The notes beneath the pieces were generated by a model. It saw only the letters and a list, made by a program, of their open reading frames with translations. It had not been told where the DNA came from and did not search any database. A stretch of DNA of 64,000 nucleotides from a virus (taxonomy: Duplodnaviria; Caudoviricetes), in IMG/VR virus record IMGVR_UViG_3300043177_000122, positions 64,001-128,000 of that record; one strand, written 5' to 3'. Each line of letters starts with the position of its first letter. Position 1 is the stretch's first letter. Positions 2,070 through 32,835 of this stretch are shown here, piece after piece. The position numbers were made by a program, and so were the translations under genes.

Positions 2070-2531
2070 TGTGGCTTTTATTTCAAAGCAAGAACAGATG
2101 CAATTAAATCTTGAGCAACTAAAAGTTGTGGCTGTTTAACTGGTGATTTGATTTCATCTGGAAATAAACTATCAAATAATTTGGGAGCCATTAATTTAGT
2201 AAGAAGGCACTACAAACATAATGCAAAGAAAAGGGATTTAATTTTCAAGTTATCAGAAAAAGAATTTGAAAATTTCATATTTGGGAATTGTCATTATTGT
2301 GGGGCTGAGCCCAAATTAGTGAAATTTGCTAGTAGCTCTGAAAATAGAAGAGATAAAGAGATTATCTATAATGGTATAGATAGGATTAATAATTCTGTAG
2401 GATATGTATTGTCTAATTGTGTTACATGCTGTTCAATTTGTAATACAGCTAAATCTGATCTTTCATTTGAAGAATTTAATGATTGGATAAAAAGATTAGT
2501 GAGATATAATGGCCAACAAAAAAGTTTCTAA
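2070..2531 (+). pseudogene. HNH/EndoVII-like homing endonuclease, 5' part broken
   Basis: CHYC...GIDRINNSVGY..SNCVTCCSICN..K; upstream in-frame CGFYFKARTDAIKS*ATKSCGCL has TGA at 2112-2114; no intact start. Confidence 0.65.
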
Positions 2532-4998
2532 ATTTCCGCCTAAACGTCCAGACAATTCACATATAATTAAAGCAAGATCGAAACATGACTGGTCAGATTA
2601 TCAGAAAGCAATTTTTCAAGATATTGCAAAGGGGAAAGATCACACTGTTGTAATTGCTAGGGCTGGCAGTGGGAAAACAAGCACTATTGTTGAAGGTTTT
2701 AGATATATTCCAAAAGGAACGAAAACTCTCATGGTTGCTTTTAATAAAAGTATAGCCGAGGAGTTAAAACAACGAGCCGCATCTTATATTGATGTAATGA
2801 CTCTTCATTCTTTGGGATTCAGAGCTATTAAACAAAGTTTTGGAACTGATGTTATTCTAGAGAATGACAAATGTAATATGCTTATCTCCACACTAATTGG
2901 AGATGATCGGGATATGTGGGAAGTGAATCAGAGCATTGCAAAGTGTGTTTCTCTTTGTAAGGGTTTTCTTGTAGATACTCCATCTAAAGTTGGAGATTTG
3001 ATTGACAAGTTTGGAATCGAAATATTCGATTATTCTAGAGAGAAATTTACTGAATTAGTCCTCAAGACATTAGCTTTGTGCAAAGCAAAGAAAAATGTCA
3101 TTGATTTTGACGATATGATTTGGTTTCCCTTCGTTTATCGTTTAAACGTAGGGAAATTCGATGTTGTTTTTGTTGACGAAGCTCAGGATCTAAATCAGGC
3201 ACAAATTGCCATGGTGTTATCGGCTTGTAAAGTAGATGGTCGCATTATTGCAGTTGGAGACCCGGCGCAATGTGTTGATGAAAATACTATGGTAAATGTT
3301 GACGGAGGTTGGGCTTCCGTTAAAGATTGTAAAGTTGGACAATATATACTTTGCTATAATAATAGCAAATTAGATAGTAAAAAAATTATCAACAAAGTAA
3401 AATCTAATTGGGAATATGGTTATGAAATAACAACGTATTCTGGTAAGAAATTATTGATGTCCCCGAACCATAAGATTTGGGCGTCTGCACCAATGCTTGA
3501 CGAACAATATATTGTTTATTTGATGTATAGACCAGATTTAGGTTTTAGAGTAGGTAAAACTAATACGTGGAAGGATACAAATTATCCATTTGGTTTAAGA
3601 GCTAATTCTGAAAATGCAACCAAACTTTGGGTTCTTGATATTGCAAACTCTAATGAAGAAGCTCTGTTATTGGAAGAGCAGTATTCTTTAAGATATAAAA
3701 TTCCTACATCTGTATTTAATGGTGAACATAGAAATATCAATCAAGAAAGATTAAATACAATTTTTGCAGAGTTTGGAAAAAATGGACACTTTCTTCTTAA
3801 AGATAAAAATCTGCATTTTGCATACCCACATTGGATGGCTTCCTCTAATTCTAAAATCAATAGAAGAACTGTTAGGGTAAATGCTCATTCTAAAAAAGGA
3901 ACTCAAGTAACTTTGGAGTGGAAAGACGACGCTTTAGATAAAGTGTTTATGAAACATGGGGTTATCTTTTCTAAAGGCAAGAATTCAAGAATTAGAAAAT
4001 ACTTCTCTGATTATACTAGCGCCTTATCGTTTGCAGGAATGATTGCACAACTTTCTGGCGGAGAAGTTAACGAAAGATTATCGATTAATGATAATCCATA
4101 TTTGATTACCGCATCAGGTCTTCATGTTGGAATGAAAGTATATTCTTTACTTAAAAATCAACTTGTTGATGATATGATTATCAGTATAGATAAAAAATCC
4201 GGCTCATTTTATGATTTGGAAGTAGAAGAATCGGCCAATTTCATTGGTAATAATATTCTGAGCCACAATTCTATTTACCAGTTCCGAGGAGCTGATAGTG
4301 AGGCTATTCCAAACTTTATTGATAAGCTTAAAGCCAAAACTTTACCATTGTCCGTTACCTACCGCTGTCCGATCAAGGTGGTAGACCTAGCGAAGGAAAT
4401 TGTACCTGACATTGAGGCGGCCGAGAATGCCAAGGATGGGGTGGTAGAAGAGGTTCCAGCAGAACAATTTCTTAAATTGGTTAGGCCGGGGGACTTTGTG
4501 CTCTCTAGGACGAACGCCCCTTTGATTAAACACTGTATGGCTTTGCTAAAAGCAGGGGTACCAGCCAATATTCAAGGAAGAGATGTTGGCGCCAATCTAC
4601 AATATTTCATTAAAAAATCCAAATCAAAGACTATTGTTCAATTTACAGAATATGTAAATGCATGGAGAGAACAAGAAGTTAAGCGACTATTGGCTGAGAA
4701 AAAAGATCCAATTGCAACTATCGATAAAGCAGAATGTTTATTGAACCTCTGTGAAGGAACCCTTACTATTAAGGACCTAAAAGAGACAATAGAAAAGCTG
4801 TTCAACGATGTTAATGATACTGCTAAAGTTATTTTTTCAACAACACATAAAGCCAAAGGTTTGGAACGCGATAGAGTCTTTGTTCTCACCAACACCTACC
4901 GAAAAGGAGCCGGAGGAGAAGAAGACAACCTCTGGTATGTCGCGGTAACTCGTAGTAAATCTGAGTTGTACCTGGTAAAGAAATACTTGAAGCAATAA
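2509..4998 (+). CDS. uvrD: SF1 UvrD/Rep-like helicase containing an intein
   Basis: Walker A ARAGSGKT, VDEAQD, GDPAQ|SIYQFRGA split by an insertion, STTHKAKGLE, YVAVTRSK. Confidence 0.9.
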   Translation: MANKKVSKFPPKRPDNSHIIKARSKHDWSDYQKAIFQDIAKGKDHTVVIARAGSGKTSTIVEGFRYIPKGTKTLMVAFNKSIAEELKQRAASYIDVMTLHSLGFRAIKQSFGTDVILENDKCNMLISTLIGDDRDMWEVNQSIAKCVSLCKGFLVDTPSKVGDLIDKFGIEIFDYSREKFTELVLKTLALCKAKKNVIDFDDMIWFPFVYRLNVGKFDVVFVDEAQDLNQAQIAMVLSACKVDGRIIAVGDPAQCVDENTMVNVDGGWASVKDCKVGQYILCYNNSKLDSKKIINKVKSNWEYGYEITTYSGKKLLMSPNHKIWASAPMLDEQYIVYLMYRPDLGFRVGKTNTWKDTNYPFGLRANSENATKLWVLDIANSNEEALLLEEQYSLRYKIPTSVFNGEHRNINQERLNTIFAEFGKNGHFLLKDKNLHFAYPHWMASSNSKINRRTVRVNAHSKKGTQVTLEWKDDALDKVFMKHGVIFSKGKNSRIRKYFSDYTSALSFAGMIAQLSGGEVNERLSINDNPYLITASGLHVGMKVYSLLKNQLVDDMIISIDKKSGSFYDLEVEESANFIGNNILSHNSIYQFRGADSEAIPNFIDKLKAKTLPLSVTYRCPIKVVDLAKEIVPDIEAAENAKDGVVEEVPAEQFLKLVRPGDFVLSRTNAPLIKHCMALLKAGVPANIQGRDVGANLQYFIKKSKSKTIVQFTEYVNAWREQEVKRLLAEKKDPIATIDKAECLLNLCEGTLTIKDLKETIEKLFNDVNDTAKVIFSTTHKAKGLERDRVFVLTNTYRKGAGGEEDNLWYVAVTRSKSELYLVKKYLKQ
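3271..4269 (+). mobile_element. 333-aa intein in helicase motif III
   Basis: Begins CVDENT after GDPAQ; block B SPNHKI; ends FYDLEV...NNILSHN before Ser+1 (SIYQFRG). Confidence 0.92.
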
Positions 4999-5015
4999 TC
5001 TCGCATCTAGCTGAG

Positions 5016-6266
5016 ATGACTCGCTATAAAATGGTTGCTAGGGATATCAATTCCAATCCCACACAATGGAGAACTTGGGTAGTTCAGGGACAGCCTGATT
5101 TTGACGGATATTATTATACCGGTTATAAATCAGGTCCTAACGCCTTTACGGAAGTACATGCTTATGCTATACCTGATACAGGCACTATAGCTGACTTTAA
5201 TCTTCCAGACCCTACTAATTGGGTAGCTACTACGGACCGTTTAAATTGGGATTTCCCAATTCGTAAGGTTTTGCCAGCTCCATTAGAGGATTCAGCTCTA
5301 GCTGTTCTTGATGGGTACATCTATATGTTTGGCGGTAAGATTACCGACAAGATTTATCGTGCTCATGTCAATAATCCTGCTGATTGGGAAGATACAGGTG
5401 CCGTATTACCCAATCCATTGTTTGGGTCCTCTTTGGCCATTGTGGATGGATACATCTATTTATTTGGAGGAAACAACGGAGTAGATGCTGTAAATGGCCT
5501 TGGTGCTATAGATAATATCTACTCTGCTCCGGTTAGTAATCCATTAGTTTGGACTAATCATGGCTCTTTATTACCACGTAGATTAGAATACTCTCATTTA
5601 GCAATGGATGGTTATCAACTCTATCTATTTGGTGGTAGAGAAATTAACTCAGCTACTAATCTTATTTTTACAGCCACCACTTCTAATCCTTTATCTTGGA
5701 CAATAACTGGCTCCACTTTACCATACAAAGTATATGGCGGAACTTTAGCTCAAATTAATAATAATTGGATGATATTTGGTGGTCTTCTTACTCCTGATTC
5801 CCCTACTAACACAATAATTACAGCGTCAGTTAATACTCCGTTATCTTGGACAACTACCGGATTACTACCATGGTCTACTGGATTCGGACAATTTGTTAAT
5901 ATTGGTGGTGATGGATATCTCATTGGACCAATGAATGGTGCAAATACCAATTTTACATCTATTCTGCGTTGTAATTTGAATAATCCAAATGCATGGGTTG
6001 ATCTTCAAGTTGTGGTGCGCGGTGTTGTCTCTCATTCACAGATAGCAATCATTGCAGATAGAGTATGGCTTTTTGGCGGATCAGGATTAACTGCAATTTT
6101 CGCATGTAACCAGATTACTAAATACAATATATTAGCGCCCAAAGCTATCAATTATGGAACCATTACACGTGTTACTGTGCCTAATACTGATAACATAAAT
6201 AGACCATATACTGCAACTGGTATGCCGTGGTGGAAAACTGATTATCCTTTTTATAATAGACCGTAA
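5016..6266 (+). CDS. Kelch-repeat beta-propeller protein
   Basis: Repeated YIY(M/L)FGG/LYLFGG/WLFGG units at about 50-aa spacing, with ..NPL.W motifs. Confidence 0.75.
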   Translation: MTRYKMVARDINSNPTQWRTWVVQGQPDFDGYYYTGYKSGPNAFTEVHAYAIPDTGTIADFNLPDPTNWVATTDRLNWDFPIRKVLPAPLEDSALAVLDGYIYMFGGKITDKIYRAHVNNPADWEDTGAVLPNPLFGSSLAIVDGYIYLFGGNNGVDAVNGLGAIDNIYSAPVSNPLVWTNHGSLLPRRLEYSHLAMDGYQLYLFGGREINSATNLIFTATTSNPLSWTITGSTLPYKVYGGTLAQINNNWMIFGGLLTPDSPTNTIITASVNTPLSWTTTGLLPWSTGFGQFVNIGGDGYLIGPMNGANTNFTSILRCNLNNPNAWVDLQVVVRGVVSHSQIAIIADRVWLFGGSGLTAIFACNQITKYNILAPKAINYGTITRVTVPNTDNINRPYTATGMPWWKTDYPFYNRP

Positions 6267-6285
6267 TTTAGTAAATAAAGCAGGG

Positions 6286-6313
6286 TTGACTTCCCTCTGA
6301 AAATGATTAGAAT
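6286..6313 (+). promoter_or_regulatory. sigma70-like promoter of the pth2-pheRS operon
   Basis: TTGACT-N16-TAGAAT. Confidence 0.65.
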
Positions 6314-6320
6314 TTGAATT

Positions 6321-6812
6321 ATGAAAGACTATGATACGCCAGAGGAGTGTGAAAAGAGAGCTTCTCAAGAAGATCCTATTGTTATGTACTTAATTGTTCA
6401 TGAAACATTGAATATGAGTACAGGTAAAACAGCAGCTCAATGCGCTCATGCATCTCAGATGTTAACGCTAGAGTACTTTGAAGCTAAAGATAAATCTCGT
6501 GAATTGCAAAAACAAATTCAAAAAACTACCGATCCTGATGAGTTGCTTGTAATGAAAAGTCTGTATGCCGATTATGGTCGCAAGTTATCTATTTTTGGTG
6601 AATGGATGGAAAACTCTTTCCGTAAAGTAGTGCTTCGAGCAGATGACAAAGAATGGGCAAAAATCAAGCAAGACTATGGCCAACATATGGTTATGGTGGT
6701 TGATGCTGGTTTGACAGAAATTCCCAGCGGCAGTGAGACGGTTATAGGTCTATGGCCTATGCGCAAAAGTCAGAGGCCAAAAACTGTTCAACACTTACAA
6801 GTCTTGAAATGA
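6321..6812 (+). CDS. pth2: Peptidyl-tRNA hydrolase, Pth2 (archaeal/eukaryotic-type) family
   Basis: GKTAAQCAHA, RKVVL, VDAGLTEI.SGSETVIG; catalytic K/D/T present. Confidence 0.85.
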   Translation: MKDYDTPEECEKRASQEDPIVMYLIVHETLNMSTGKTAAQCAHASQMLTLEYFEAKDKSRELQKQIQKTTDPDELLVMKSLYADYGRKLSIFGEWMENSFRKVVLRADDKEWAKIKQDYGQHMVMVVDAGLTEIPSGSETVIGLWPMRKSQRPKTVQHLQVLK

Positions 6813-7183
6813 TACATGGATTAGTGGTACAAGAGACACAAAATCGTGGCCTTGGTGTATTTGCCACAAAACCTTTTGAAAAGGGAGAACTCATTGAGTG
6901 CTGCCATGTTATTGTTGTACCACGCACAGAGATTATGATTGGCAATACCAGTTCAGTTATGAGACATTATGTAATTGATTGGGACGGTAAACTAGCTGTA
7001 CCAACTGGTTATGGTTGCTTTTATAATCATTCATATAAGCCCAATGCCATTCATTATAAGCATATAGATTTAAATCAAATTCATTTGCATGCTTTAAGAG
7101 ATATTCTTCCATTTGAAGAGATAACGTTCAATTATGGTGGATTTCCTGACTGCAATGAAACATTATGGTTTGAGGTTAAATGA
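6809..7183 (+). CDS. SET-domain lysine methyltransferase
   Basis: GLGVFAT..FEKGELI, YNHSYKPNA, ALRDI..EEITFNYG; ATGA overlap with pth2 stop. Confidence 0.85.
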   Translation: MIHGLVVQETQNRGLGVFATKPFEKGELIECCHVIVVPRTEIMIGNTSSVMRHYVIDWDGKLAVPTGYGCFYNHSYKPNAIHYKHIDLNQIHLHALRDILPFEEITFNYGGFPDCNETLWFEVK

Positions 7184-7204
7184 AATGTACATGTCCAGGC
7201 TGGT

Positions 7205-7789
7205 ATGGTACTAAGTATCCTTGGCCACTTAGCTTATGTTCAATCTGACGAAATTTCTTTGTTAATAACAAACTATCAAACATTGGATACTCAATCTTGG
7301 TTTGATAATAATCTTCAGAAGATGATAAGTGTGGCTGCTGGCGTTGCGTCTAGTACTTTTACTACCGAATCTTGGAGAATTTGGATGGATGAGGATACTC
7401 CAAGTTTAAAGAAAATAGTACCAGCAATTTTTGATGCTAGAGCTTTTGTCCTTCCAAAAGAAGATGTTGTCAACTATTTCTTATGGCGTCAGCAGGATGC
7501 TACTAGAAACTCTGTGCAAATGTTAGCCCGATCTCTGTATTCGCACAAAGAGTGCACTAATAAAAATAACTCTGAATTACAAGAGTTGATTTTCCAAAAG
7601 GGAATCAACTGAAATGACTGCCCAACGTCACAAAAGCGTGGACGCTGTATTGTTAAAAAGTATACCAAAAAGTCTACTTTGAATCCTAAAGTTCAACAAT
7701 ATGAAACGGCACTTCGTAGTGAGTGGGAGGTTGATAATGAGATTCCTATCTTTTCACAAGATAGAAACTATATCAATCAATATGTCTAA
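7205..7789 (+). pseudogene. Thg1-like (TLP) guanylyltransferase, N-terminus missing plus internal stop
   Basis: AYVQSDEISLL, FDARAF, YFLWRQQDATRNS, GIN*NDCP..KRG (TGA 7610-7612 where Trp is expected), continues to IPIFSQDRNYI; the RLDG motif is absent. Confidence 0.85.
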
Positions 7790-8117
7790 AAGTCAAATTA
7801 GAAAAGAACGCAAACGAAAACGTTTTAAACAAAAGAAAATAAACACTAAGCTAAAGAAGAAATTGTTTGGTCATCTGTTTATGGCGCCCTGTATTTATTG
7901 TAGGCGGGCCTTTTTATTATCTACATTAACAGTTGAACACATTACGCCATTATGCCTTGGTGGAACCAATGATCCATCTAATATTGCATTGGCATGCTTT
8001 CCTTGCAATAATGATAAGGGAAGAGAAGCTTGGTTCCAAAAACGTGAATTTAATAAGAAACACTATGAACAATATCACTCACAGTATCGAATTGAAAATT
8101 GGGAAAGGATTATATAG
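7782..8117 (+). CDS. HNH endonuclease
   Basis: CIYC...TVEHITPLCLGGTND.SNIALAC..CNNDKG. Confidence 0.8.
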   Translation: MSKSQIRKERKRKRFKQKKINTKLKKKLFGHLFMAPCIYCRRAFLLSTLTVEHITPLCLGGTNDPSNIALACFPCNNDKGREAWFQKREFNKKHYEQYHSQYRIENWERII

Positions 8118-9132
8118 GAACCCAGCACACCCTTTGTGTATTGTCAAAGAGATGGTTTTTGATTATTTTGAAGATTTATCACGAATCGAAATTGATAATC
8201 CATATGTGCCTATTGAATATAATTTCGATAGACTACGTGTACCTACCGATCATCCTTCAAGACGTCCAACTGATACCTACTACAAGGATGATAAGAACTG
8301 CCTCCGCACCCATATGACATGTTATTTATATCCATTTGGGAAATCAGATACTGGTCAAAGTAAGCTTAAGTATATTACATGTGGTGACGTCTATCGAAAA
8401 GATACTATTGATGCTACACATTATCCAGTGTTCCATCAGATGGATGCATTTTGTATGGTTCCAGATGATGTAGATGTAAGGCAAGATTTGCGCAATAGGT
8501 TGCAAGGTTTAGTAAAACATCTTTTTGGCGAAAGCACAGAATGTCAGTTCTTAGAAGATTCAGAATATGAAGAGGTTTACTTTCCTTTTACAATTGATTC
8601 TGTCGAAGTGAGTGTTTCTTTACCGGATGAGCATGGCAAAATTAAACAACTAGAAATTTTAGGAGCAGGAACTGTCCATCCCGACATTATGGCCGATCTT
8701 GGTTTGCCAGGTAAAAAAGCGTGGGCTTTTGGTTTAGGTCTAGAAAGATTAGCTATGGTTATGTTCGGCATTCCTGATATTAGATTATTTTGGAGCACAG
8801 ATAAAAGATTTTTAAGTCAATTTACGCCGGGCAAGATTACCAAATTTAATCCTTACTCAAAATATGAGTCATGTTATAAAGACATTTCATTTTTCTTAAG
8901 TGAAAAATTTTCTTATAACGACCTCTGCTCTATCGCTAGAGATGAAGATGAGAACAACATAATTGAATCTATTTCATTGATTGATGAGTTCCAGGTTAAA
9001 GGCCGAACTTCGCAGTGTTATAGAATTACATATCGCTCCATGGATGGTACGTTACGAAACTCTGATGTAAATACAATTCAAAAATCAATCAGAGACCGAA
9101 TTATCCAAGAGCTAGGAGTAGAAGTAAGATGA
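8065..9132 (+). CDS. pheS: Single-chain (mitochondrial-type) phenylalanyl-tRNA synthetase
   Basis: HPSRR..DTYY, LRTHMT, GDVYRKD.ID.THYPVFHQMD, FPFT, LEILGAG, WAFGLGLERLAM...IPDIRLFW fused to an FDX-ACB domain (SKY....KDISF, SQCYRITYRS...TL). Confidence 0.9.
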   Translation: MNNITHSIELKIGKGLYRNPAHPLCIVKEMVFDYFEDLSRIEIDNPYVPIEYNFDRLRVPTDHPSRRPTDTYYKDDKNCLRTHMTCYLYPFGKSDTGQSKLKYITCGDVYRKDTIDATHYPVFHQMDAFCMVPDDVDVRQDLRNRLQGLVKHLFGESTECQFLEDSEYEEVYFPFTIDSVEVSVSLPDEHGKIKQLEILGAGTVHPDIMADLGLPGKKAWAFGLGLERLAMVMFGIPDIRLFWSTDKRFLSQFTPGKITKFNPYSKYESCYKDISFFLSEKFSYNDLCSIARDEDENNIIESISLIDEFQVKGRTSQCYRITYRSMDGTLRNSDVNTIQKSIRDRIIQELGVEVR

Positions 9133-9647
9133 AAACTGTCTATATCTTTTTTGGAGAAATGGGAAGTGGTAAAAGCTATTGTGGTTCCCGCTATGCAGAG
9201 AAGCATGGTTTCAAGTTTTTCGAAGGAGATAGTGTGGTCACTCCTCGTATGTTAGAGCGAGTTTCTAAGTTCAAAGCTATCAGTGAAGATATCTTAGAAG
9301 AATATATGGATGTTTTGGCTGATGCAATTGCCGATCAAATGACAGATTGTGAACATCTTGTTGTATCACAAGCTTTATACCGAGATGAAGATAGAAAATC
9401 TATGATTACTTTTCTTGAGTGCTTAGGTTATCAAGTAAGAATGTGGTGGGTCCAAGTTAAATGGAATCGTAACATTCAGAACTTGCTTACTAGACCAAAC
9501 GGATGGAAATGGGTTTTGTATTGGTTAATTAATAAACCATTCTTTCAAAGGCCCACTCATGTCCATCAGTTGTTTTACAATATATATATGGGTGAGCACA
9601 ATGGAGAACAAGGAAACCTTTCAAGCCAGAATTCAACCTTACTTTAG
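9129..9647 (+). CDS. P-loop kinase (gluconate/shikimate kinase-like)
   Basis: GEMGSGKS, FFEGD; 3' end runs into the next gene over a TA repeat, so the true stop is uncertain. Confidence 0.6.
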   Translation: MKTVYIFFGEMGSGKSYCGSRYAEKHGFKFFEGDSVVTPRMLERVSKFKAISEDILEEYMDVLADAIADQMTDCEHLVVSQALYRDEDRKSMITFLECLGYQVRMWWVQVKWNRNIQNLLTRPNGWKWVLYWLINKPFFQRPTHVHQLFYNIYMGEHNGEQGNLSSQNSTLL

Positions 9648-10233
9648 TCCATCAGATCAATTGGACGTTAAACTGGCATATTGCTTAGCTAAGTTTGGTC
9701 ATCGCGCCCAAACAAGAAAAGAGCTTACGGAAGGTAAACCCACTAGATATTTTGAGCATGTACGTAGAGTAGCAATTGTTCTTATGGATGAAATGAAAAT
9801 CATTGATCGTGATATGATTATTACCGCTCTACTTCATGATTCAATCGAAGATACACATGATTTAACGCCAGAACTATTAGAGCATTGCTTTGGATCTGAT
9901 GTAATCACTATGATTAAGCTGCTTAGCAAAGTTCCCAAGGAAGGATACATTGAGAGATTAGGAAATTGCCATAACTGGAAAGTATTAGCAATTAAAGCTT
10001 GTGATAGATTAGATAATCTGCGATCTTTAATGATACCGGGGACCAGTTTGGAGTTTCAAAAGAAACAAATTGCAGAAACTAAAGAAAAGTATTTCCCTAT
10101 ATTTGACAAGCTGATTAATAATCTATGTCCTCAAGAACACGTTGAAAATGTTTCGAAGGTCCGAGATGAAATTAGAAGATTAATTGAGCGATATAATACC
10201 ATTATTGAATTTCAGGAAGGAAAAACTGCATGA
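9601..10233 (+). CDS. RelA/SpoT-type HD hydrolase (small alarmone hydrolase/MESH1-like)
   Basis: H..Q.RK...YFEH..RVA, LLHDSIEDT, IKACDRLDNLR. Confidence 0.8.
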   Translation: MENKETFQARIQPYFSPSDQLDVKLAYCLAKFGHRAQTRKELTEGKPTRYFEHVRRVAIVLMDEMKIIDRDMIITALLHDSIEDTHDLTPELLEHCFGSDVITMIKLLSKVPKEGYIERLGNCHNWKVLAIKACDRLDNLRSLMIPGTSLEFQKKQIAETKEKYFPIFDKLINNLCPQEHVENVSKVRDEIRRLIERYNTIIEFQEGKTA

Positions 10234-10823
10234 CTTGTATTGTAGGATTAGTACACGATGGTGATGTATACATTGGCGGAGATAGTGCCGGTGTAGCTGG
10301 ATTATCTATTTCCATCAGGGCTGACGAGAAGGTATTTGGTAATGGGCCATTCATTATGGGTTTTACTACCTCATTTCGTATGGGTCAGTTACTAAGGTAT
10401 AAGTTATCACCCCCTGCACAGACTGTACATCAATCTGATATGGAATATATGGTAACCAGTTTTATTGATTCATGTCGTCAATGTTTTGCTGGCAATGGTT
10501 TCGGCGATAAAGACGCCACTATGGGTGGTAACTTTTTAGTAGGATACAAAGGAAAGCTTTACAACATTGAAGGTGATTATCAAGTAGGTGTTCCTAAGTC
10601 CCCATTTGATGCAGTTGGTTGTGGTTCTGATTTAGCCCTTGGCGCCATGTATGCTACCGAAGGTTTAAAGCCAGAAGAAAGAATCAATGCTGCCTTAGCA
10701 GCCGCCAGTACTTTTAGTGCCGGTGTTGCTCCCCCTTTCATTATTTTGAAGCTAGAGGGCGAGAATAAGACCAAAGCCAAGTCCAAACCAAGGAAGAAGT
10801 CGGCCAAGAGATCGGTAAAGTAA
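10230..10823 (+). CDS. Ntn-hydrolase (proteasome beta/HslV-like) protein
   Basis: Starts M-TCIVG (Thr nucleophile position), IGGDS, DEKVF, AVGCGS..ALGA; basic C-terminal tail. Confidence 0.65.
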   Translation: MTCIVGLVHDGDVYIGGDSAGVAGLSISIRADEKVFGNGPFIMGFTTSFRMGQLLRYKLSPPAQTVHQSDMEYMVTSFIDSCRQCFAGNGFGDKDATMGGNFLVGYKGKLYNIEGDYQVGVPKSPFDAVGCGSDLALGAMYATEGLKPEERINAALAAASTFSAGVAPPFIILKLEGENKTKAKSKPRKKSAKRSVK

Positions 10824-10838
10824 TAAATTGTCGTGCCC

Positions 10839-10866
10839 TTGACTTGCCACACGACAGCCTTATGTT
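10839..10866 (+). promoter_or_regulatory. sigma70-like promoter with flanking inverted repeat
   Basis: TTGACT-N16-TATGTT; TGTCGTG (10829) / CACGACA (10850) brackets the -35. Confidence 0.6.
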
Positions 10867-10950
10867 ATAGCTAGGCTGATGGGAGAGGTGTGTCTTAGGC
10901 ACGCCCTTTTAACTGGACCGCACTTACCCAATCGTAATAAGGTGAAAAAA

Positions 10951-12825
10951 ATGACTCCGAATCGTATCAGAGAGTTAGAGAACAAGATTTTCAAAGCTCG
11001 TACGGACTACTACAACCATCAACCTACTGTTTCTGACAAGGTGTATGATGCTTGGGTAGATGAACTACGCACTCTTGACCCTTCTAACAAGGCCGTAACT
11101 GCCATTGGTGCTCCAGTTGTTCCTTCTGAATGGACTAAAGCTAAGCATCAGATTCCAATGGGATCCTTGGATAAAGTTAATACTCCTGCCGAATTCTCTA
11201 AATGGGTAGAGGATACGTATCCTGATGGTAAGCTTCTTATCACCGAAAAGCTTGATGGACTCTCCATTGAGGTTATTTATGAGAATGGGCATCTTGTTCA
11301 GGCCATTACTCGTGGTGATGGTGACATTGGTGAAGATATTACTGTCAACGTTGTCAAGATGGGAGGCGTTCACTCTCACCTAAAACACAATTTTACCGGC
11401 TCTTTACGTGGTGAAATCATTATGAAGAAGAGCATTCATAAGCAATTCTTTGCTGATAAAGCTAATCCGCGTAATGCAGCATCAGGCACTAGTAAGCGTT
11501 TGGATGGTGTGGGTGTCGATAAGCTCAACATTTTGTTCTATCAAGCACTTGGTGATGTTGATTTTGGTGTGGAGCAAGCTCAATTCGCCTGGCTTGTTAA
11601 CCAAGGGCTAGATACGCCTAACTGGTGGGTAGTTAAAACTGCCGATCAAGTCAATAAATTCTGGCGTGATTACCAAGATACCAAGCGTGACAACCTGGAT
11701 TATGATATTGACGGATTAGTTATTCGTGTTGATGATATGGCCAAGCAGATGGCTCTAGGCGAGAAAGACCTCCGTCCCAAAGGAGCAATTGCGTTCAAGT
11801 TTGAAAATGAAGCTCGCGAATCTATCATTCGAGACATTGTTTGGCAGGTTGGTAACTCTGGTCGCCTAACTCCTGTTGCCACTGTTGATCCTGTTCAATT
11901 AGTTGGCGCTACCATTACACGAGCCAGCCTCTATAATTACTCTTATATTGAAGAACTGAGTCTTGATATTGGCGCCACTGTTCTTGTGGCGCGAGCTAAT
12001 GACGTTATTCCTCGTATTGAAGAGACTATCAAGAAGACAGGTACTGTGGCTAAGCCGCCCAGCAAATGCCCTGAGTGTGATGGTAAGACTGTTTTCGATG
12101 GGGAGAATCTCGTCTGTACTAATACTGAGTATTGTCGAGCACAGATCATTGGTCGTATTAAAAATTGGATTAAAGAACTTAACCTTCTTGAGTGGGGCGA
12201 TACTCTTGTTGAGAAGTTAGTTGAGGCAAAGAAGGTCAAGAACATTGCTGACTTGTACAAATTGAAAGTGGATGATATCGCTAATCTTGACCGTCTTGGT
12301 GAAAAGACAGCAAAGAAGGTGCTAGATATTCTTTGGGCCAACAAGAAAGTGCCTTTAGAAGTTTTTCTAGGTGCATTATCCATTCCTCTTATTGGGCAGG
12401 CTTCGATTAAATTAATTATGAAAGCCGGCTGTGATACTTTAGAAAAGTTTGGGCAATTAAATGCCGATGCTTTTGAACAAGTTCCTGGTCTTGGTCCGAT
12501 TAAAGCAAAATCACTGGCTGACGGTCTTAAAAATAACCAACAACTCATTCTTGATTTATTAAAAAATGGCATTGAAATCAAAGAGGCAATTGATGGTAAA
12601 TTAACCGGCAAAAGCTTTGCCATTACTGGGACTCTTTCTATCAAGCGTGCAGAAGTTGAAAAGATGATTGTAGATAATGGAGGAGAGGTTAAAAGTAGCG
12701 TTGGAAAGGGATTATCTTATCTAATCATTGCCGATCCTCAATCTGCCAGTAGCAAGGCCCAGGCGGCACGCAAATTGGGAACAATTCTTATCGACGAAAA
12801 GCAGTTTTTGGAATTGATTAAGTAA
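10951..12825 (+). CDS. ligA: NAD+-dependent DNA ligase
   Basis: EKLDG, RGE, NPRNAASG, DGLV, AIAFKF, C4 Zn finger, HhH repeats, C-terminal BRCT (FAITGTL). Confidence 0.96.
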   Translation: MTPNRIRELENKIFKARTDYYNHQPTVSDKVYDAWVDELRTLDPSNKAVTAIGAPVVPSEWTKAKHQIPMGSLDKVNTPAEFSKWVEDTYPDGKLLITEKLDGLSIEVIYENGHLVQAITRGDGDIGEDITVNVVKMGGVHSHLKHNFTGSLRGEIIMKKSIHKQFFADKANPRNAASGTSKRLDGVGVDKLNILFYQALGDVDFGVEQAQFAWLVNQGLDTPNWWVVKTADQVNKFWRDYQDTKRDNLDYDIDGLVIRVDDMAKQMALGEKDLRPKGAIAFKFENEARESIIRDIVWQVGNSGRLTPVATVDPVQLVGATITRASLYNYSYIEELSLDIGATVLVARANDVIPRIEETIKKTGTVAKPPSKCPECDGKTVFDGENLVCTNTEYCRAQIIGRIKNWIKELNLLEWGDTLVEKLVEAKKVKNIADLYKLKVDDIANLDRLGEKTAKKVLDILWANKKVPLEVFLGALSIPLIGQASIKLIMKAGCDTLEKFGQLNADAFEQVPGLGPIKAKSLADGLKNNQQLILDLLKNGIEIKEAIDGKLTGKSFAITGTLSIKRAEVEKMIVDNGGEVKSSVGKGLSYLIIADPQSASSKAQAARKLGTILIDEKQFLELIK

Positions 12826-12867
12826 AAACTACGTATATTATGAGAAAACGAAAAGTTTATTTAGCAG

Positions 12868-13458
12868 ATGTTCCTAACTCCCCCCACATCACGAGCAGTT
12901 TATTTTAATGGCGCCATTTGGAAACCAGTGGTAGATGAAACTTACTACAATGTAGGTGAGCTTATTGAATGTCAGTTGAAAGCTGAATCAGGCGAGTCTG
13001 TTTTACTAGTTGGAGGCAAACTTCGTGGATATTTAGAAACCTGGTTTGAGGTTTTCCGAAATAAAGAAGCAAAAAAGTGCCGAATACAGGGTTGTGAAAT
13101 CGGACCACCTTTCATTCGTGAGTTATGTAATACTCATTACCAACGAGCACAAAGATGCGGTGATGAAAATTACGTTCCACAAATAGCTCCAAAGGGTACA
13201 GGATTTATAAACAAAGCCGGTTATCGTATAATTTTAGATGGTAATGGTGGTAAAATAAAAGAACACAGATTGGTAATGGAGCAGCATTTGGGAAGAAAAC
13301 TATTATCTCATGAGAATGTTCATCACAAAAATGGCAATAAATCTGATAATAGATTAGAAAATCTTGAATTGTGGAGCACAAAACAACCGCAGGGTAAGAG
13401 AATAGAAGATTTAATTTTTTATGCAAAAGAGATTTTATCTCTTTATGAAGGTGAATGA
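12868..13458 (+). CDS. HNH (HNH_3-like) endonuclease, possibly fused to a small upstream ORF
   Basis: C...GC...LC..HY, EHRLVME.HLGRKL...ENVHHKNG.KSDNRLENLELW. Confidence 0.75.
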   Translation: MFLTPPTSRAVYFNGAIWKPVVDETYYNVGELIECQLKAESGESVLLVGGKLRGYLETWFEVFRNKEAKKCRIQGCEIGPPFIRELCNTHYQRAQRCGDENYVPQIAPKGTGFINKAGYRIILDGNGGKIKEHRLVMEQHLGRKLLSHENVHHKNGNKSDNRLENLELWSTKQPQGKRIEDLIFYAKEILSLYEGE

Positions 13459-13868
13459 TGTGGTTTCGTAATTTGATTGAAAACATTAAATCATTTTGGT
13501 GGTATTCAAGTGAAGGTCAGTTTGGAGCATTAGAAATGGAAGGGCCCATCATCAAAAGAGACCCTTTAGATAAAGAGCGCCCCAATTTCTATATTGGTAA
13601 AATTACACCAGACAGTATGTTTGATTGGGAAGTAATAGAGATTATTGATGACAACAATATCAAAATAAAAGTATTGAAAATCTATCACGATCGTATGGAT
13701 AGATATCTTGATGAGGGCAAAGTGTATCCCGTATTCAAACATTCTGGATGGAATGATGCAACGATGCAGATATGGGAAATTGCCCCAGAACATATGAAGC
13801 GAGATGTTTCGCAGGTTATTCTTATGTGGGATAAGGGGGTTGGATGGAGTTGGGATTTAGATACATAG
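13455..13868 (+). CDS. Hypothetical protein
   Basis: ORF overlaps upstream stop; operon context only. Confidence 0.5.
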   Translation: MMWFRNLIENIKSFWWYSSEGQFGALEMEGPIIKRDPLDKERPNFYIGKITPDSMFDWEVIEIIDDNNIKIKVLKIYHDRMDRYLDEGKVYPVFKHSGWNDATMQIWEIAPEHMKRDVSQVILMWDKGVGWSWDLDT

Positions 13869-17567: not shown

Positions 17568-19064
17568 ATGAGTTTACCTGTCATTAAGGACCAATCCGTT
17601 ATTGATCGTATTAAAGTTGTAGAGTCTGTCAAGGGATGGACTTTAAACTTTACTGACATTGTAAATAACAACAACAAGTTCTATAATCTTGAAGTTGTGA
17701 AATCGTCAGATAATAGTTTCTATCTGTATACTGTGTATGGAAGAGTTGGAGCTAGCGGTGCTAAAGAGTATCGCGCTTGTTCTTCTCTTGCTCAGGCAGA
17801 AAAAGAAGCTGAAAGCATTATCAAATCCAAGAACAAAAAGGGATATATTGAAGTTAAACTTGCTAAAGCAGATGTTGGGTCTGAACAAGGTAAAGAGAAA
17901 GTGGATATTTCTGTTACCGTTGAGTCTTTGAAAAAGGCTGGCGTTCAAGTAAAAGAGGAGCCGCAAGTTGCAAGCAAATTGCACCCCGAGGTTCAAGATC
18001 TAGTTCGTACTTGGTTCGGTGTTACACAAGAGTTCGTCGAGTTGAACTTGGATACTAAGAAGTGCCCGCTTGGTCAATTATCTCTTGATCAGATTGATAA
18101 AGCCAAACAGATTCTTGGTGAAGCAACCAAGATTGTTAATCTCAAGAAACCAGATGTTGATGAGCTTAACAGTTTGACTAGCCAATACTACTCTAACATT
18201 CCACACGTACTCCCACATAGAATTAATGCCGATCTTCTGCGCTTTGATGATATGGCAAAGATTACTAAAGCACAAGATATTCTTGATGTCTTTGCAGATG
18301 CTAAAAATGTTCAAGCAGTTATTTCCAAGAAAAGCGCTGTAGATTCACAGTACGCAACCTTAAACGCTGGACTTGAGTATGTAGAACCTACCGATCCAAC
18401 TTGGAAATGGCTTGAGGCAATGGTTCATGAAACCCGCGCTTCAAATCACTCTGGTTTAGGTAAGATTAAAGTTCATAAAATCTTCAAACTTGCTCGTAAT
18501 GATGAGCAAAAACATTTTCTTGAGACGGCTGGTAAGATTGCCAAAGAATGTGGAAATTGGAATCCCTCTCCAATCTACTCTAACTTGGTTAAGAGGCGCC
18601 CTGATGTTCCGAAGGAGTTACAAGAGCTTTATGCTAAAGCTAACATCCTTCCAGGTTGGCACGGCACTCGTAGAGCCAATATGATTGGTATTACTACTAA
18701 AGGGTTGTTGATTCGCCCATCTGGTGTTATCCATGCGGGGTCTATGTATGGTGATGGTATTTATTGGGCCGTTCATAGCACTAAGTCTATTAATTATTGT
18801 GATGTCAAAGGCTCTTACTGGGCTCAGGGTGCTAATAAAACCGCTTATCTCTTCTTAGGAGACGTAGCCTTCGGTAATCAAAAAATGGCTGGCGGATCCT
18901 ACATGTATACCAAGAAGAACATTGCTCCAAACCATTCGGTGTGGGCCAAGTCTGGTGGTTGCTCAGGTCTATACAACGATGAGCTGATTACATATACTGC
19001 ATCTGGTCATGGCCAACAGCATGTACTTCGTTATATCATCGAATTTGAAACGCAGGCTCGCTAA
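17568..19064 (+). CDS. Poly(ADP-ribose) polymerase-like protein: WGR + helical regulatory + ART domains
   Basis: NNKFYNLEV..YGRVG (WGR); CPLGQLS, YYSNIPH (regulatory); WHGTR..N, GSMYGDGIYWA...KSINY, LYNDELITY, LRYIIEF (H-Y-E triad). Confidence 0.9.
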   Translation: MSLPVIKDQSVIDRIKVVESVKGWTLNFTDIVNNNNKFYNLEVVKSSDNSFYLYTVYGRVGASGAKEYRACSSLAQAEKEAESIIKSKNKKGYIEVKLAKADVGSEQGKEKVDISVTVESLKKAGVQVKEEPQVASKLHPEVQDLVRTWFGVTQEFVELNLDTKKCPLGQLSLDQIDKAKQILGEATKIVNLKKPDVDELNSLTSQYYSNIPHVLPHRINADLLRFDDMAKITKAQDILDVFADAKNVQAVISKKSAVDSQYATLNAGLEYVEPTDPTWKWLEAMVHETRASNHSGLGKIKVHKIFKLARNDEQKHFLETAGKIAKECGNWNPSPIYSNLVKRRPDVPKELQELYAKANILPGWHGTRRANMIGITTKGLLIRPSGVIHAGSMYGDGIYWAVHSTKSINYCDVKGSYWAQGANKTAYLFLGDVAFGNQKMAGGSYMYTKKNIAPNHSVWAKSGGCSGLYNDELITYTASGHGQQHVLRYIIEFETQAR

Positions 19065-29530: not shown

Positions 29531-30490
29531 ATGAGAATTCTGTCGGGTATACAACCGTCAGGAACAATTCACATCGGCAACTATTTTGGAATGATCAAGC
29601 CCTTGGTCGATTTACAAGGTAAGGGAGAAGTGTATTGTTTCCTTGCGGATTATCATTCAATGACATCATTGTTTGATGCAAAAGAACGTAAAGCAAATTC
29701 AATTGAAGCAGCAACTACACTGCTAGCGTGTGGCATGGATCCTAAAACTGTTTTGTTTCGACAGTCAGATAGTCAGTCAGTGACTGAGCTAGCATGGATG
29801 CTTTCTACTGTAACTCCAATGGGCCTTTTAGAAAGGTGTCATAGTTACAAAGATAAAACTTCTAAAGGCATCCCAACCAATCATGGTTTGTTTGCTTATC
29901 CTGTTTTGATGGCGGCTGATATCCTACTATACCAATCTAATTTGGTACCAGTAGGAAAAGATCAACTTCAGCATTTGGAAGTGACGCGAGATATTGCCGT
30001 CAAGTTCAATACTACGTATGGGGAAATATTTACACTCCCCGAGCCCTATATTCAAGAAGCGGTAGCAACTGTTCCTGGAACTGATGGACAGAAGATGTCT
30101 AAAAGTAATGGTAACACTATCGAAATCTTTGGAGATGAAAAAGTTCTTAAGAAAAAGATAATGTCTATTGTGATGGATAGCCGCTCGCTGGCCACGCCAA
30201 AACCAGATGCAGATAAGAATATTGCAATTCAACTTCTAAAATTAGTAGCTCCGATGAATGTTGCTGAAGAATATGAAATGGAATTGCGAGATGGCTATCT
30301 TGGTTATGGTCAGCTTAAGAATGTTCTATTCGAACAATATTTTAGTTATTTTGAGAAACCAAGAGCATTGTATCAGGAATTGAAGAAGAATCCGGACTAT
30401 GTAGAGCAAATTCTTCAAGAAGGTGCAGAACATGCCCGCTATCAAGCCCATCGTACGATGGAAAAAGTAAGAGAAGTAGTGGGTTTATGA
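29531..30490 (+). CDS. trpS: Tryptophanyl-tRNA synthetase (bacterial type)
   Basis: GIQPSG.IHIGNY, YPVLMAADIL, VPVGKDQLQHLE, KMSKS. Confidence 0.96.
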   Translation: MRILSGIQPSGTIHIGNYFGMIKPLVDLQGKGEVYCFLADYHSMTSLFDAKERKANSIEAATTLLACGMDPKTVLFRQSDSQSVTELAWMLSTVTPMGLLERCHSYKDKTSKGIPTNHGLFAYPVLMAADILLYQSNLVPVGKDQLQHLEVTRDIAVKFNTTYGEIFTLPEPYIQEAVATVPGTDGQKMSKSNGNTIEIFGDEKVLKKKIMSIVMDSRSLATPKPDADKNIAIQLLKLVAPMNVAEEYEMELRDGYLGYGQLKNVLFEQYFSYFEKPRALYQELKKNPDYVEQILQEGAEHARYQAHRTMEKVREVVGL

Positions 30491-30932: not shown

Positions 30933-31616
30933 ATGAATAAATTAGTTGTATTTGATATCGCTGGCACCACAATTGAAGACAATGATGCGGTTGGTCAAGC
31001 TTTTTTGAAAGCTTTTTTATCGTTCGGGTTAAATCCAACCACTGAACAAATTAATAATGTGATGGGACTATCCAAACCACAATCTATCAAGATTATTCTG
31101 AAAGAGCTAGATAACACTACTCCAATTGCTGAAATACACGATCAGTTTTTAAAGAATATGATTGAGCATTATAGTCTTGATGAAAATATAAAAGAAATAC
31201 CTGGAGCTGCTGAAACATTCAACACCCTACATGAAATGGACTATTATGTAGCTCTTGATACTGGATTTAGTCGAGACATTACAAATATCATTCTAGATAA
31301 GCTAGGATGGGTTAACCAAGGATTAGTAGATGCTGTTGTTAGCAGCGATCAAGTCAAATATGGAAGACCTTATCCATATATGATATTCAAGTTAATGGAG
31401 ACGCTCCATATCAAAAGCGTCCATGATGTTGTAAAAGTTGGCGATACTGTCGCCGATATTTATGAAGGTTTAAATGCTGGGTGTGATGTAGTAATAGGCG
31501 TCACTACTGGAACAGAGACTAAACAATCTTTCAAAGAAAAATTATCCGGGTGTCACTACTGTGTAATGGATGACATTACAGAAGTGCCCGCTTGTTTACA
31601 TTACACTCCTATTTGA
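30933..31616 (+). CDS. Phosphonatase-like (PhnX-like) HAD hydrolase
   Basis: VVFDIAGTT, ALDTG, GRPYPYMI, VKVGDT..DI.EG.NAG. Confidence 0.75.
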   Translation: MNKLVVFDIAGTTIEDNDAVGQAFLKAFLSFGLNPTTEQINNVMGLSKPQSIKIILKELDNTTPIAEIHDQFLKNMIEHYSLDENIKEIPGAAETFNTLHEMDYYVALDTGFSRDITNIILDKLGWVNQGLVDAVVSSDQVKYGRPYPYMIFKLMETLHIKSVHDVVKVGDTVADIYEGLNAGCDVVIGVTTGTETKQSFKEKLSGCHYCVMDDITEVPACLHYTPI

Positions 31617-31623
31617 GGAAGTC

Positions 31624-32835
31624 ATGTCTAATATATTCGAAGATTTGGAGCAGCGTGGTTTGATTAAACAAACAACCAACGCAGATAAGTTGCGTCAACT
31701 ATTTAACTCAAATACTCCAGTCACGTTTTACATTGGATTTGACCCCACTTCTGATAGTTTACATATAGGCCACTTACTTCAAGTAGTAACAGCTAAGCGA
31801 CTAGTCCAAGCTGGGCATCGAGCTATCATGTTAGTTGGCGGAGCAACCGCTTTGATTGGAGATCCGACAGGCAAGTCAGAAATGCGAAAAATGCTTTCTC
31901 ATTCTGATATTAGGGTAAATGGTGAAGCCATCGGCGCCCAGATTCAAAAAATAATGGGAAGAGAAATTGAATTAGTCAATAACCTAACTTGGTTTGATGA
32001 TGCTGATTTTCTTTCTCTTTTGCGTACCATTGGCCCCTTTTTCTCTGTTAATAATATGTTGCGAGCTGAGTGCTTCAAAAGTCGAATGGAGCATGGACTC
32101 TCATTTTTAGAGTTCAATTACATGATTATGCAGGCGCAAGACTTCCGAATGCTTCATTTGGAAGAGGGCTGCATTTTACAAATTGGCGGTGATGATCAGT
32201 GGTCTAATATCTTAGCTGGTATTGATTTGATTCACAAAAAGCATGGGCACGAAGTATTCGGTCTAACACTTCCTTTGTTAGTCAATTCTGATGGAATCAA
32301 AATGGGAAAGACGGAAAAAGGAGCGGTGTGGTTGGGTCCGGCTAAAACTTCTCCCTCTGAGTTTTTTCAATTTTGGAGAAATATTCCTGACGATCAAGTA
32401 GAAAAATGTCTTCTTTTCTTTACTGATATGAAACCGGGTGAGTTGATTGAATCGTCTTTTAATATCAACCATCACAAAAAAAATCTAGCATTTGAAATTA
32501 CGAAATTGGTTCATGGCGAATCAATAGCACGACAGGCGCTCGAGCAGGCAGAAGCCTTGTTCGAGAAACAAGATACTTCTACTCTTGAAGCAATTTCTAT
32601 CCAAGAAGGCACGCACATTCTTGATTTACTTATGGTATGTGGTTTTGCAAAATCACGTACAGGTGGTAGAAATTTAATCAATAATAGAGGGATCTCAATA
32701 AACCAAGATGTTCTTACTGACCCTACGATTGTAATTTCCAGAAATCAGTTTGGAAATGAATTAATTGTGAAAAAGGGCAAGAAGAATTTCTGTCGCCTGC
32801 TTATTGAGGATAAATGCCAAGACCAAGTACCGTAA
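31624..32835 (+). CDS. tyrS: Tyrosyl-tRNA synthetase (bacterial type, S4 C-domain)
   Basis: YIGFDPT.DSLHIGH, EF.Y..MQA.DF, QIGGDDQW.NI, KMGKT, KKGKK. Confidence 0.96.
   Translation: MSNIFEDLEQRGLIKQTTNADKLRQLFNSNTPVTFYIGFDPTSDSLHIGHLLQVVTAKRLVQAGHRAIMLVGGATALIGDPTGKSEMRKMLSHSDIRVNGEAIGAQIQKIMGREIELVNNLTWFDDADFLSLLRTIGPFFSVNNMLRAECFKSRMEHGLSFLEFNYMIMQAQDFRMLHLEEGCILQIGGDDQWSNILAGIDLIHKKHGHEVFGLTLPLLVNSDGIKMGKTEKGAVWLGPAKTSPSEFFQFWRNIPDDQVEKCLLFFTDMKPGELIESSFNINHHKKNLAFEITKLVHGESIARQALEQAEALFEKQDTSTLEAISIQEGTHILDLLMVCGFAKSRTGGRNLINNRGISINQDVLTDPTIVISRNQFGNELIVKKGKKNFCRLLIEDKCQDQVP

Follow-up and report, generated by a model that had tools for sequence, protein, structure and literature searches.

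Gene content and boundaries of the unit

We analysed a compact gene unit in the IMG/VR virus record IMGVR_UViG_3300043177_000122, a linear record of 358,993 bp from a freshwater phage, with an estimated completeness of 83%. The window, that is, the whole 64,000-nucleotide (nt) stretch under study, spans bases 64001-128000 of this record, and nearly all of its long open reading frames (ORFs) lie on the + strand. The unit occupies window positions 6286-10823. It opens with a sigma-70-like promoter and contains genes for a peptidyl-tRNA hydrolase (Pth2), a phenylalanyl-tRNA synthetase (PheRS) and a small alarmone hydrolase (SAH), together with several further genes and one pseudogene. The features, including a second promoter in the next gap, are as follows (aa, amino acids).

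6286-6313, + strand: sigma-70-like promoter TTGACT-16-TAGAAT, the top-scoring site in 4500-13500
6321-6812, + strand: Pth2-type peptidyl-tRNA hydrolase (PF01981), 163 aa, with an insertion of ~45 aa
6809-7183, + strand: minimal SET-domain methyltransferase (PF00856), 124 aa, its ATG overlapping the Pth2 stop
7205-7788, + strand: pseudogene of a Thg1-like protein (TLP); ORF part 7205-7612, in-frame TGA at 7610-7612
7782-8117, + strand: free-standing HNH homing-endonuclease gene (PF14279, PF01844), 111 aa
8065-9132, + strand: monomeric mitochondrial-type PheRS, 355 aa, core plus fused FDX-ACB (tRNA-synt_2d and FDX-ACB)
9129-9647, + strand: P-loop kinase with a predicted gluconokinase fold, 172 aa (~155 aa in relatives; AAA_33, 29 bits)
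9601-10233, + strand: SAH, an HD protein of the Mesh1/SpoT type without a synthetase domain (PF13328), 210 aa
10230-10823, + strand: HslV/proteasome-beta-like Ntn peptidase (phrog_1040), 197 aa, Met-Thr start
10839-10866, + strand: second sigma-70-like promoter TTGACT-16-TATGTT, in the gap before LigA

The genes between 6321 and 10823 are packed tightly, with overlaps of 4, 7, 53, 4, 47 and 4 nt and one 21-nt gap. The promoter at 6286-6313 sits in a 54-nt gap 3' of a Kelch-repeat gene. Promoter-like sites as a class are not commoner than in shuffled sequence (27 versus 28.5), so a match by itself means little; support for this promoter comes from its conservation. Its -35 hexamer and most of the ATGATTAGNNT -10 region (ATGATTAG-type) are kept in 10 of 11 relatives, and the spacer and flanks drift. 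The promoter at 10839-10866 is also conserved upstream of LigA in relatives, and it is reasonable to take it as the mark of the downstream end of the unit. The arrangement described in a first-pass annotation of this DNA, one promoter followed by tightly packed genes, is therefore borne out, and the unit may reasonably be kept as it was drawn there.

The -35 hexamer of the 6286-6313 promoter is located in the loop of a short GC hairpin. It is one of three sigma-70-like promoters of the window (positions 2021, 6286 and 10839) with the -35 hexamer in the loop of a short GC-rich hairpin; the stems differ among relatives through changes in both arms (for example AGGG/CCCT, CAGG/CCTG and GCGGGC/GCCCGC). 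A genome-wide search for TTGAC[TA] in GC hairpins gave only a handful of cases, and the feature is thus no general promoter rule.

Pth2, SAH and PheRS retain recognizable motifs

The first gene matches PF01981 with 73.1 bits (cut-off 23) over profile positions 2-115 of 115, and also matches phrog_1866. It aligns to Pth2 chains in the PDB at E 8e-8, the DAGLT motif included. The motifs STGKTAAQCAHAS (GK..AQ..HA region) and VVDAGLTEIPSGSETV (DAG.T strand) are legible in an alignment to PDB chain 24bt, and we take these to contain the catalytic residues.

The SAH scores 40.7 bits against PF13328 (HD_4; cut-off 27.2) and is the sole HD_4 gene of the record. Among solved structures Drosophila Mesh1 (3nqw, E 1e-12) comes first, ahead of Rel hydrolase domains and SAH structures. 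The motifs LLHDSIEDT (HDxxED) and CDRLDNLR (DRLxN) align to Mesh1 and Rel, and in the NCBIfam model spoT_relA just the hydrolase part is matched. The start at 9601 fits the lengths and N-termini of homologues.

The PheRS matches PF01409 with 170 bits and PF03147 with 63 bits, and passes the cut-off of the NCBIfam model pheS_mito (TIGR00469; 260.8 bits, cut-off 258.35). It aligns end to end with human mitochondrial PheRS (FARS2; 8p8x) at E 1e-65, and its TGA stop falls exactly at the end of the human enzyme. The start at 8065 agrees with the lengths and N-termini of homologues, of which hundreds, 354-357 aa long, are found on contigs of 0.3-0.5 Mb. No PheT beyond the FDX-ACB tail of PheRS was found in the 359-kb record (~83% complete). 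Pth2, SAH and PheRS look catalytically intact.

PheRS also matches, over its full length, the NCBIfam model NF051887, 'PheS-related mystery ligase SrmL', with 194 bits, under the cut-off of 300. SrmL is a bacterial one-chain PheS-like family; a literature search gave no paper on SrmL.

The first-pass annotation had named Pth2, a SET protein, PheRS, SAH and an Ntn protease at this locus, and the assignments hold, that of the protease as a probable one: Pth2 by PF01981 at 6321-6812, SET by PF00856 at 6809-7183, PheRS by tRNA-synt_2d plus FDX-ACB at 8065-9132, SAH by PF13328 above its cut-off with Mesh1 as best structure and RSH motifs, and the protease by phrog_1040 and an invariant Met-Thr start.

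The TLP gene is dead and adjoins a homing endonuclease gene

The same annotation had included TLP as a tRNA-repair gene. The domain is present, and the gene is dead in this genome. The fragment at 7205-7612 gives 43.5 bits against PF04446, covering only positions 65-130 of 130, and matches phrog_4717 at E 6e-47 over positions 69-190 of 250. Relatives have ~80 extra N-terminal residues, which start with MSNDSLGDRMKSYE and continue to R(V/I)DGKAFH (RxDG). DNA alignment shows that ~75-80 N-terminal codons, ~230 nt directly 3' of the SET stop, have been deleted here, with the junction at ~7184-7228. The RxDG segment with the first metal-binding Asp is missing from the palm as a result. A second lesion lies downstream: the frame past 7612 runs through a TGA into sequence matching the C-terminal part of phage TLPs, and the codon at 7610-7612, TGA here, is TGG within a conserved GINWND in four relatives read at this position. 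In nine relatives TLP is uninterrupted, with frames of 265-297 aa. A second TLP, intact and 30% identical, is located 11 kb beyond the window, at genome position 139.4 kb, and presumably covers the TLP role.

The stretch is present in two freshwater metagenome DNA runs, possibly its source; no RNA run is listed among the sequencing runs that contain it. The run contigs agree with the window sequence but are not independent of the record. Both TLP lesions are present in contigs of both runs. In run X2, long contigs break at 7228/7229, the TLP deletion junction (window 7199-7258); a 60-nt unitig of depth 13.5 and a 325-nt unitig of depth 4.6, which brings in 265 additional bases, each reach the two sides of the break. 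These unitigs share just 30 nt per side, below the bridging rule, and give a hint that the deletion is polymorphic, with deleted and undeleted alleles coexisting in the X2 sample.

We considered a reading in which TGA encodes Trp (code 4), which would fuse SET and the N- and C-terminal parts of TLP in one frame. It was rejected because TGA closes 28 of 68 long + strand ORFs, in many cases within an ATGA overlap, the TGA of PheRS matches the end of the human enzyme, the suppressor tRNAs of the record are CUA only (reading UAG, not UGA), and relatives have TGG.

Between TLP and PheRS lies the HNH gene, which the first-pass gene list had left out. It matches PF14279 and PF01844 at E ~1e-13, as well as many HNH PHROGs. 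Where HNH is absent in relatives, TLP abuts PheRS, and the gene would be a selfish homing endonuclease.

SET methyltransferase, kinase and peptidase

The SET protein scores 59.8 bits against PF00856 (cut-off 22.4), and its closest solved structure is PBCV-1 vSET (1n3j, E 5e-13, full length), to which the motifs FYNHSYKPNA (NHS) and ITFNYGG (C-terminal Tyr) align. Like vSET (A612L), it is ~120 aa long, has nothing beyond the SET core and carries the NHS and C-terminal Tyr motifs. It differs from vSET in its relatives and its host: homologues of ~125 aa are found in the same phage clade and then, more distantly, in bacteria, the nearest non-phage homologues being bacterial SET proteins of 115-130 aa, and a bacterial host has no histone H3. 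No link of the SET protein to translation was found.

The kinase reaches 30 bits against the NCBIfam gluconokinase model TIGR01313, whose cut-off is 113.75, and so falls outside that family. Its AF2 model (pLDDT 88.8) has E. coli GntK (1knq) as the top Foldseek match, with TM 0.74, E 2e-9 and 16% identity. On this predicted model, the kinase appears to share only the fold with gluconokinase. It belongs to a phage-clade family of 107 proteins of ~155 aa. The P-loop kinase reported in the first-pass annotation is thus present (AAA_33), and the gluconokinase fold had been missed. The kinase ORF extends 18 codons past the end seen in all relatives, the usual stop being lost here, and overlaps the SAH start by 47 nt.

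The last gene matches phrog_1040, 'peptidase HslV family', at E 7e-25. Its nearest Atlas clusters are named HslV-like, with 12-18% of members carrying PF00227. A Thr follows the initiator Met: MTC(I/V)(V/I)GL is invariant in 11 orthologues, as is GGDSAG. Searches of Pfam, NCBIfam and PDB sequences gave no match, and the AF2 model built with 11 close orthologues (pLDDT 43) was too poor for a fold search. No link of the peptidase to translation was found.

A stable core with exchangeable neighbours

Two IMG/VR scans gave 25 loci: 17 close ones, with PheRS at least 69% identical, and eight distant ones with PheRS 36-47% identical. The genes of the unit are kept to very different degrees in the close relatives. 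PheRS is found in all 17, Pth2 in 14/14 of those with enough upstream flank, and LigA in almost all; SAH is intact in 13/17. Ntn is present in 11/17. TLP is intact in 10/17, absent in four and reduced to a 26-residue stump in one. HNH is present in 6/17 and absent in the rest, SET occurs in 4 (of 14 evaluable) and the kinase in 3/17. Pth2 is followed by a 215-aa family in loci without SET, and PheRS by a 90-125-aa family in loci without the kinase. Across the clade Pth2, PheRS and SAH stay open and 47-95% identical, with conserved catalytic motifs, which points to purifying selection.

Other occupants of the slots between Pth2, PheRS, SAH and LigA are a LAGLIDADG endonuclease, PLD-like, DUF444 and HNH_3 endonuclease genes and a glutamine synthetase (locus L022, 6204-7004; L023, 2894-3583, 4774-5874 and 8467-9051; L017, 9314-10333).

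Synteny across related jumbo phages had been proposed in the first-pass annotation as a check of its operon. Only Pth2, PheRS, LigA and mostly SAH persist in the clade, the others being optional. None of the neighbours in the unit occurs within 7 kb of PheRS at the eight distant huge-phage loci with the same PheRS type, or within 8 kb at a ninth locus, L011. Precomputed Pfam assignments for two distant PheRS contigs show GlxRS, Rnl1 and PNKP near PheRS in one and unrelated genes in the other. The GenBank phage collection contained no close relative by DNA or PheRS protein, and gave only short TLP/HslV matches and bacterial-type pheS.

The phage PheRS and the mitochondrial enzyme

The most interesting part of the unit is PheRS, which bears on the origin of the mitochondrial enzyme. 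The phage protein and mitochondrial PheRS (human FARS2; PDB 3cmq, 8p8x) are both one chain with a class-II core and a C-terminal FDX-ACB. The phage protein is without a transit peptide and has a shorter N-terminus and insertion region (355 versus ~415 aa). At E<=1e-30, an exhaustive profile search returned 241 cluster representatives. Outside the phage clade, the closest sequences that carry a name are the mitochondrial PheRS of locust, fission yeast and fern, at 45-47% identity.

A quick IQ-TREE analysis was made with 64 representatives, most rows being unnamed, and rooted on four bacterial PheS from GenBank records. The monomeric family forms a single clade (SH-aLRT 99). One group of 33 rows (87) takes in all viral-contig sequences, and an adjoining group of 27 rows (83) takes in the eukaryotes, so that the viral group stands beside, not inside, the eukaryote-containing group. 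The latter also holds a compact row from the alveolate Vitrella, and the deepest named row in the tree comes from an Oligoflexia metagenome-assembled genome. These groupings, whose support is modest, raise the unlikely prospect that phage and mitochondrial PheRS are one lineage, in which the phage branch would be the source of the mitochondrial enzyme or a sister sharing its source. Transfer may have run in either direction, given the modest support, the mostly unnamed rows and the deep position of the Oligoflexia sequence. Several mitochondrial enzymes are related to phage proteins, namely the T7-like RNA polymerase, Twinkle and Pol gamma; if the PheRS reading is true, an aminoacyl-tRNA synthetase (aaRS) joins them. 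The protein may also serve engineering as a compact tRNA synthetase.

Proposed function and alternative explanations

We interpret the stretch as one sigma-70-type transcription unit and a loose cassette of independently acting genes, not an integrated system, with a probability of about 0.6. The unit would be read by host RNA polymerase of the sigma-70 type, probably early in infection, and would lie in a variable accessory region of a 360-490-kb freshwater phage. The most likely role of Pth2, PheRS and SAH is to maintain a usable tRNA pool in the infected cell. Pth2 would release tRNA from peptidyl-tRNA that has dropped off or stalled. PheRS, as a single chain, would charge tRNA-Phe without the host two-subunit enzyme, and the phage supplies two tRNA-Phe genes. 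The Mesh1-like SAH would cleave the 3'-pyrophosphate off (p)ppGpp or (pp)pApp, and perhaps also off pyrophosphorylated tRNA CCA ends, and in this way dampen the stringent response and toxSAS-type shut-off. Three other genes, those for the vSET-like methyltransferase, the gluconokinase-fold kinase and the HslV-like peptidase, are probably recent, exchangeable passengers. The record's translation genes, including the second TLP, a second Pth2, IF3, TrpRS, TyrRS and 57 tRNAs, lie dispersed over more than 100 kb among DNA-repair and other genes; given this scatter, a few adjacent ones are expected.

Several points weigh against this interpretation. No clear terminator was found after the upstream Kelch gene, and read-through into the unit is possible. 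A sigma-70 match does not prove early timing. Pth2 scores well under the NCBIfam equivalog cut-offs (59 versus 126 and 49 versus 82) and has the 45-aa insertion, and may therefore act on another substrate. Down to ~70% PheRS identity the order Pth2 ... PheRS-SAH-LigA is kept, and selection for co-expression, besides common descent, could be the cause.

The first-pass annotation had read the locus as a panel of antidotes, and the corresponding alternative is a co-adapted anti-defence operon in which each product answers one class of translation-targeting toxin: Pth2 against GNAT tRNA acetylators, SAH against toxSAS, TLP against 5'-end damage and PheRS against aaRS-directed kinases. For single genes the idea has support. 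In the passages concerned, the survey of Iyer, Anantharaman, Krishnan, Burroughs & Aravind (2021, PMC7824862) reports archaeo-eukaryotic PTH2, Thg1, HD-alarmone PDEase, IF3, Ro/TROVE, RlaP, Rnl1/RNA ligases, PNK-HAD and many tRNAs in jumbo phages, and treats such genes as answers to host attack on translation or as ribosome rescue. The proposal that Pth2, Thg1 and alarmone hydrolases of jumbo phages act against translation-targeting defence is thus already published; specific to the present locus are the gene arrangement and its instability. The families are the same, and the survey, as far as those passages go, does not present them as one transcription unit; SET domains and HslV do not appear in the passages searched, and for aaRS these describe no conserved complement and a few jumbo phages with a lysyl-tRNA synthetase KTSC-domain protein. 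In the present phage, Thg1 is a pseudogene. SAHs do neutralise toxSAS (Jimmy et al., 2020, PMC7229694; Kurata et al., 2021, 10.1101/2021.04.30.441581), and the SAHs MESH1 and ATfaRel restore aminoacylation of tRNA pyrophosphorylated by FaRel2 (Kurata et al., bioRxiv 10.1101/2021.04.30.441581), so the biochemistry invoked in the first-pass annotation is real. The phage SAH has in common with these proteins a single-domain RSH hydrolase with HDxxED and Mesh1 as best structure; no toxSAS gene is adjacent to it, and it is therefore not the antitoxin of a toxin-antitoxin pair. Tight packing behind one conserved promoter and RNA-repair genes elsewhere in the window fit an anti-defence operon, and high gene turnover is itself typical of anti-defence loci. 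The composition of the unit fits it poorly. Besides being a pseudogene in this phage, TLP has disappeared or decayed in five further relatives; SET, the kinase and Ntn are optional and have no known toxin counterpart, the kinase being gluconokinase-like; homing endonucleases, PLD, DUF444 and glutamine synthetase take the slots elsewhere; the neighbours do not co-occur beyond the immediate clade; and PADLOC gave no match besides generic HNH similarity to PtuB. Individual genes are plausible candidate antidotes; as a designed panel the operon does not stand, with TLP dead and SET, kinase, HNH and Ntn optional, and we regard the co-adapted operon as distinctly improbable.

Two further readings give translation a smaller part. 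The unit might reprogramme metabolism, with the HD protein acting as an NADPH or nucleotide phosphatase, the kinase feeding the pentose-phosphate route, the unit serving nucleotide supply together with the adenylosuccinate synthetase and HAD genes nearby, and the translation genes being incidental. The nearest fold and family of the kinase are gluconokinase, an adenylosuccinate synthetase and a HAD hydrolase are encoded in the window, and MESH1 is cited as an NADPH phosphatase by Kurata et al. (10.1101/2021.04.30.441581). The kinase, however, occurs in just 3/17 relatives and lies far under the gluconokinase cut-off, the SAH keeps legible RSH hydrolase motifs (LLHDxxEDT, DRLDNLR), and the most stable members, Pth2 and PheRS, are translation enzymes, all of which makes the metabolic explanation very unlikely. 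The genes might instead share no more than a location, a recombination and homing hot spot with HNH/LAGLIDADG genes and promoter hairpin cassettes, with most of them bringing little or no benefit. Plastic regions of T4-type phages carry free-standing homing endonucleases and promoter stem-loop cassettes. Here, too, HNH and LAGLIDADG genes stand between conserved genes, hairpin-embedded sigma-70-like promoters lie at module borders and neighbours turn over, although the hairpin is found at only three promoters of the window. Three kinds of homing endonuclease in the slots across relatives, an intein in the UvrD gene 1.3 kb upstream, the decay of TLP and the promoters embedded in hairpins all agree with such a hot spot. 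The purifying selection indicated for Pth2, PheRS and SAH, open and 47-95% identical with conserved catalytic motifs, speaks against it, and we see little chance that location is the whole explanation.

On the loose-cassette reading, close packing of genes behind a single promoter in a huge-phage accessory region is not in itself a sign of a functional system: here half of the genes can be exchanged and one is a pseudogene. If the three conserved enzymes have the proposed activities, the unit would show in compact form how huge phages protect their translation from tRNA loss, stringent shut-down and tRNA-end modification, and Pth2, SAH and the one-chain PheRS would be three small, clonable candidates for testing against known toxins.

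Genes and signals around the unit

The context genes listed in the first-pass annotation were found in the window: RlaP, Rnl1, PNKP, the extra aaRSs TrpRS and TyrRS, and phosphatases, here three calcineurin-like ones. Its count of 13 tRNAs in the window is one too high, as ARAGORN finds 12 there and 57 in the whole record. Two of the tRNA genes in the record are tRNA-Phe(GAA) and one is tRNA-Tyr; ARAGORN found no tRNA-Trp in the record. The second Pth2, IF3 and two tRNA-CUA genes are located just beyond the window.

A leader of ~80 nt (window 10868-10955) separates the promoter at 10839-10866 from the likely true LigA start (ATG 10951, MTPNRIREL). Its box TTTTAACTGGAnCGCACTTACCCA is near-invariant in 14 relatives (among L013-L030), and the flanking coding DNA is less conserved. 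The consensus fold is weak (-4.6 kcal/mol, little covariation), and an Rfam search at E<=1 over 4500-13500 gave no match, for the leader or elsewhere in that interval. The leader could be a regulatory RNA or a protein-binding site.

The UvrD-like helicase gene at 2509-4998, 1.3 kb upstream of the unit, is split by an intein (Intein_splicing, residues 284-587), and the insert of ~330 residues is missing from relatives L003-L006. The three aaRSs of the window (8065-9132, 29531-30490 and 31570-32835) are those for Phe, Trp and Tyr, all aromatic amino acids. At 17568-19064 the window encodes a complete eukaryote-style PARP with WGR, regulatory and catalytic domains.

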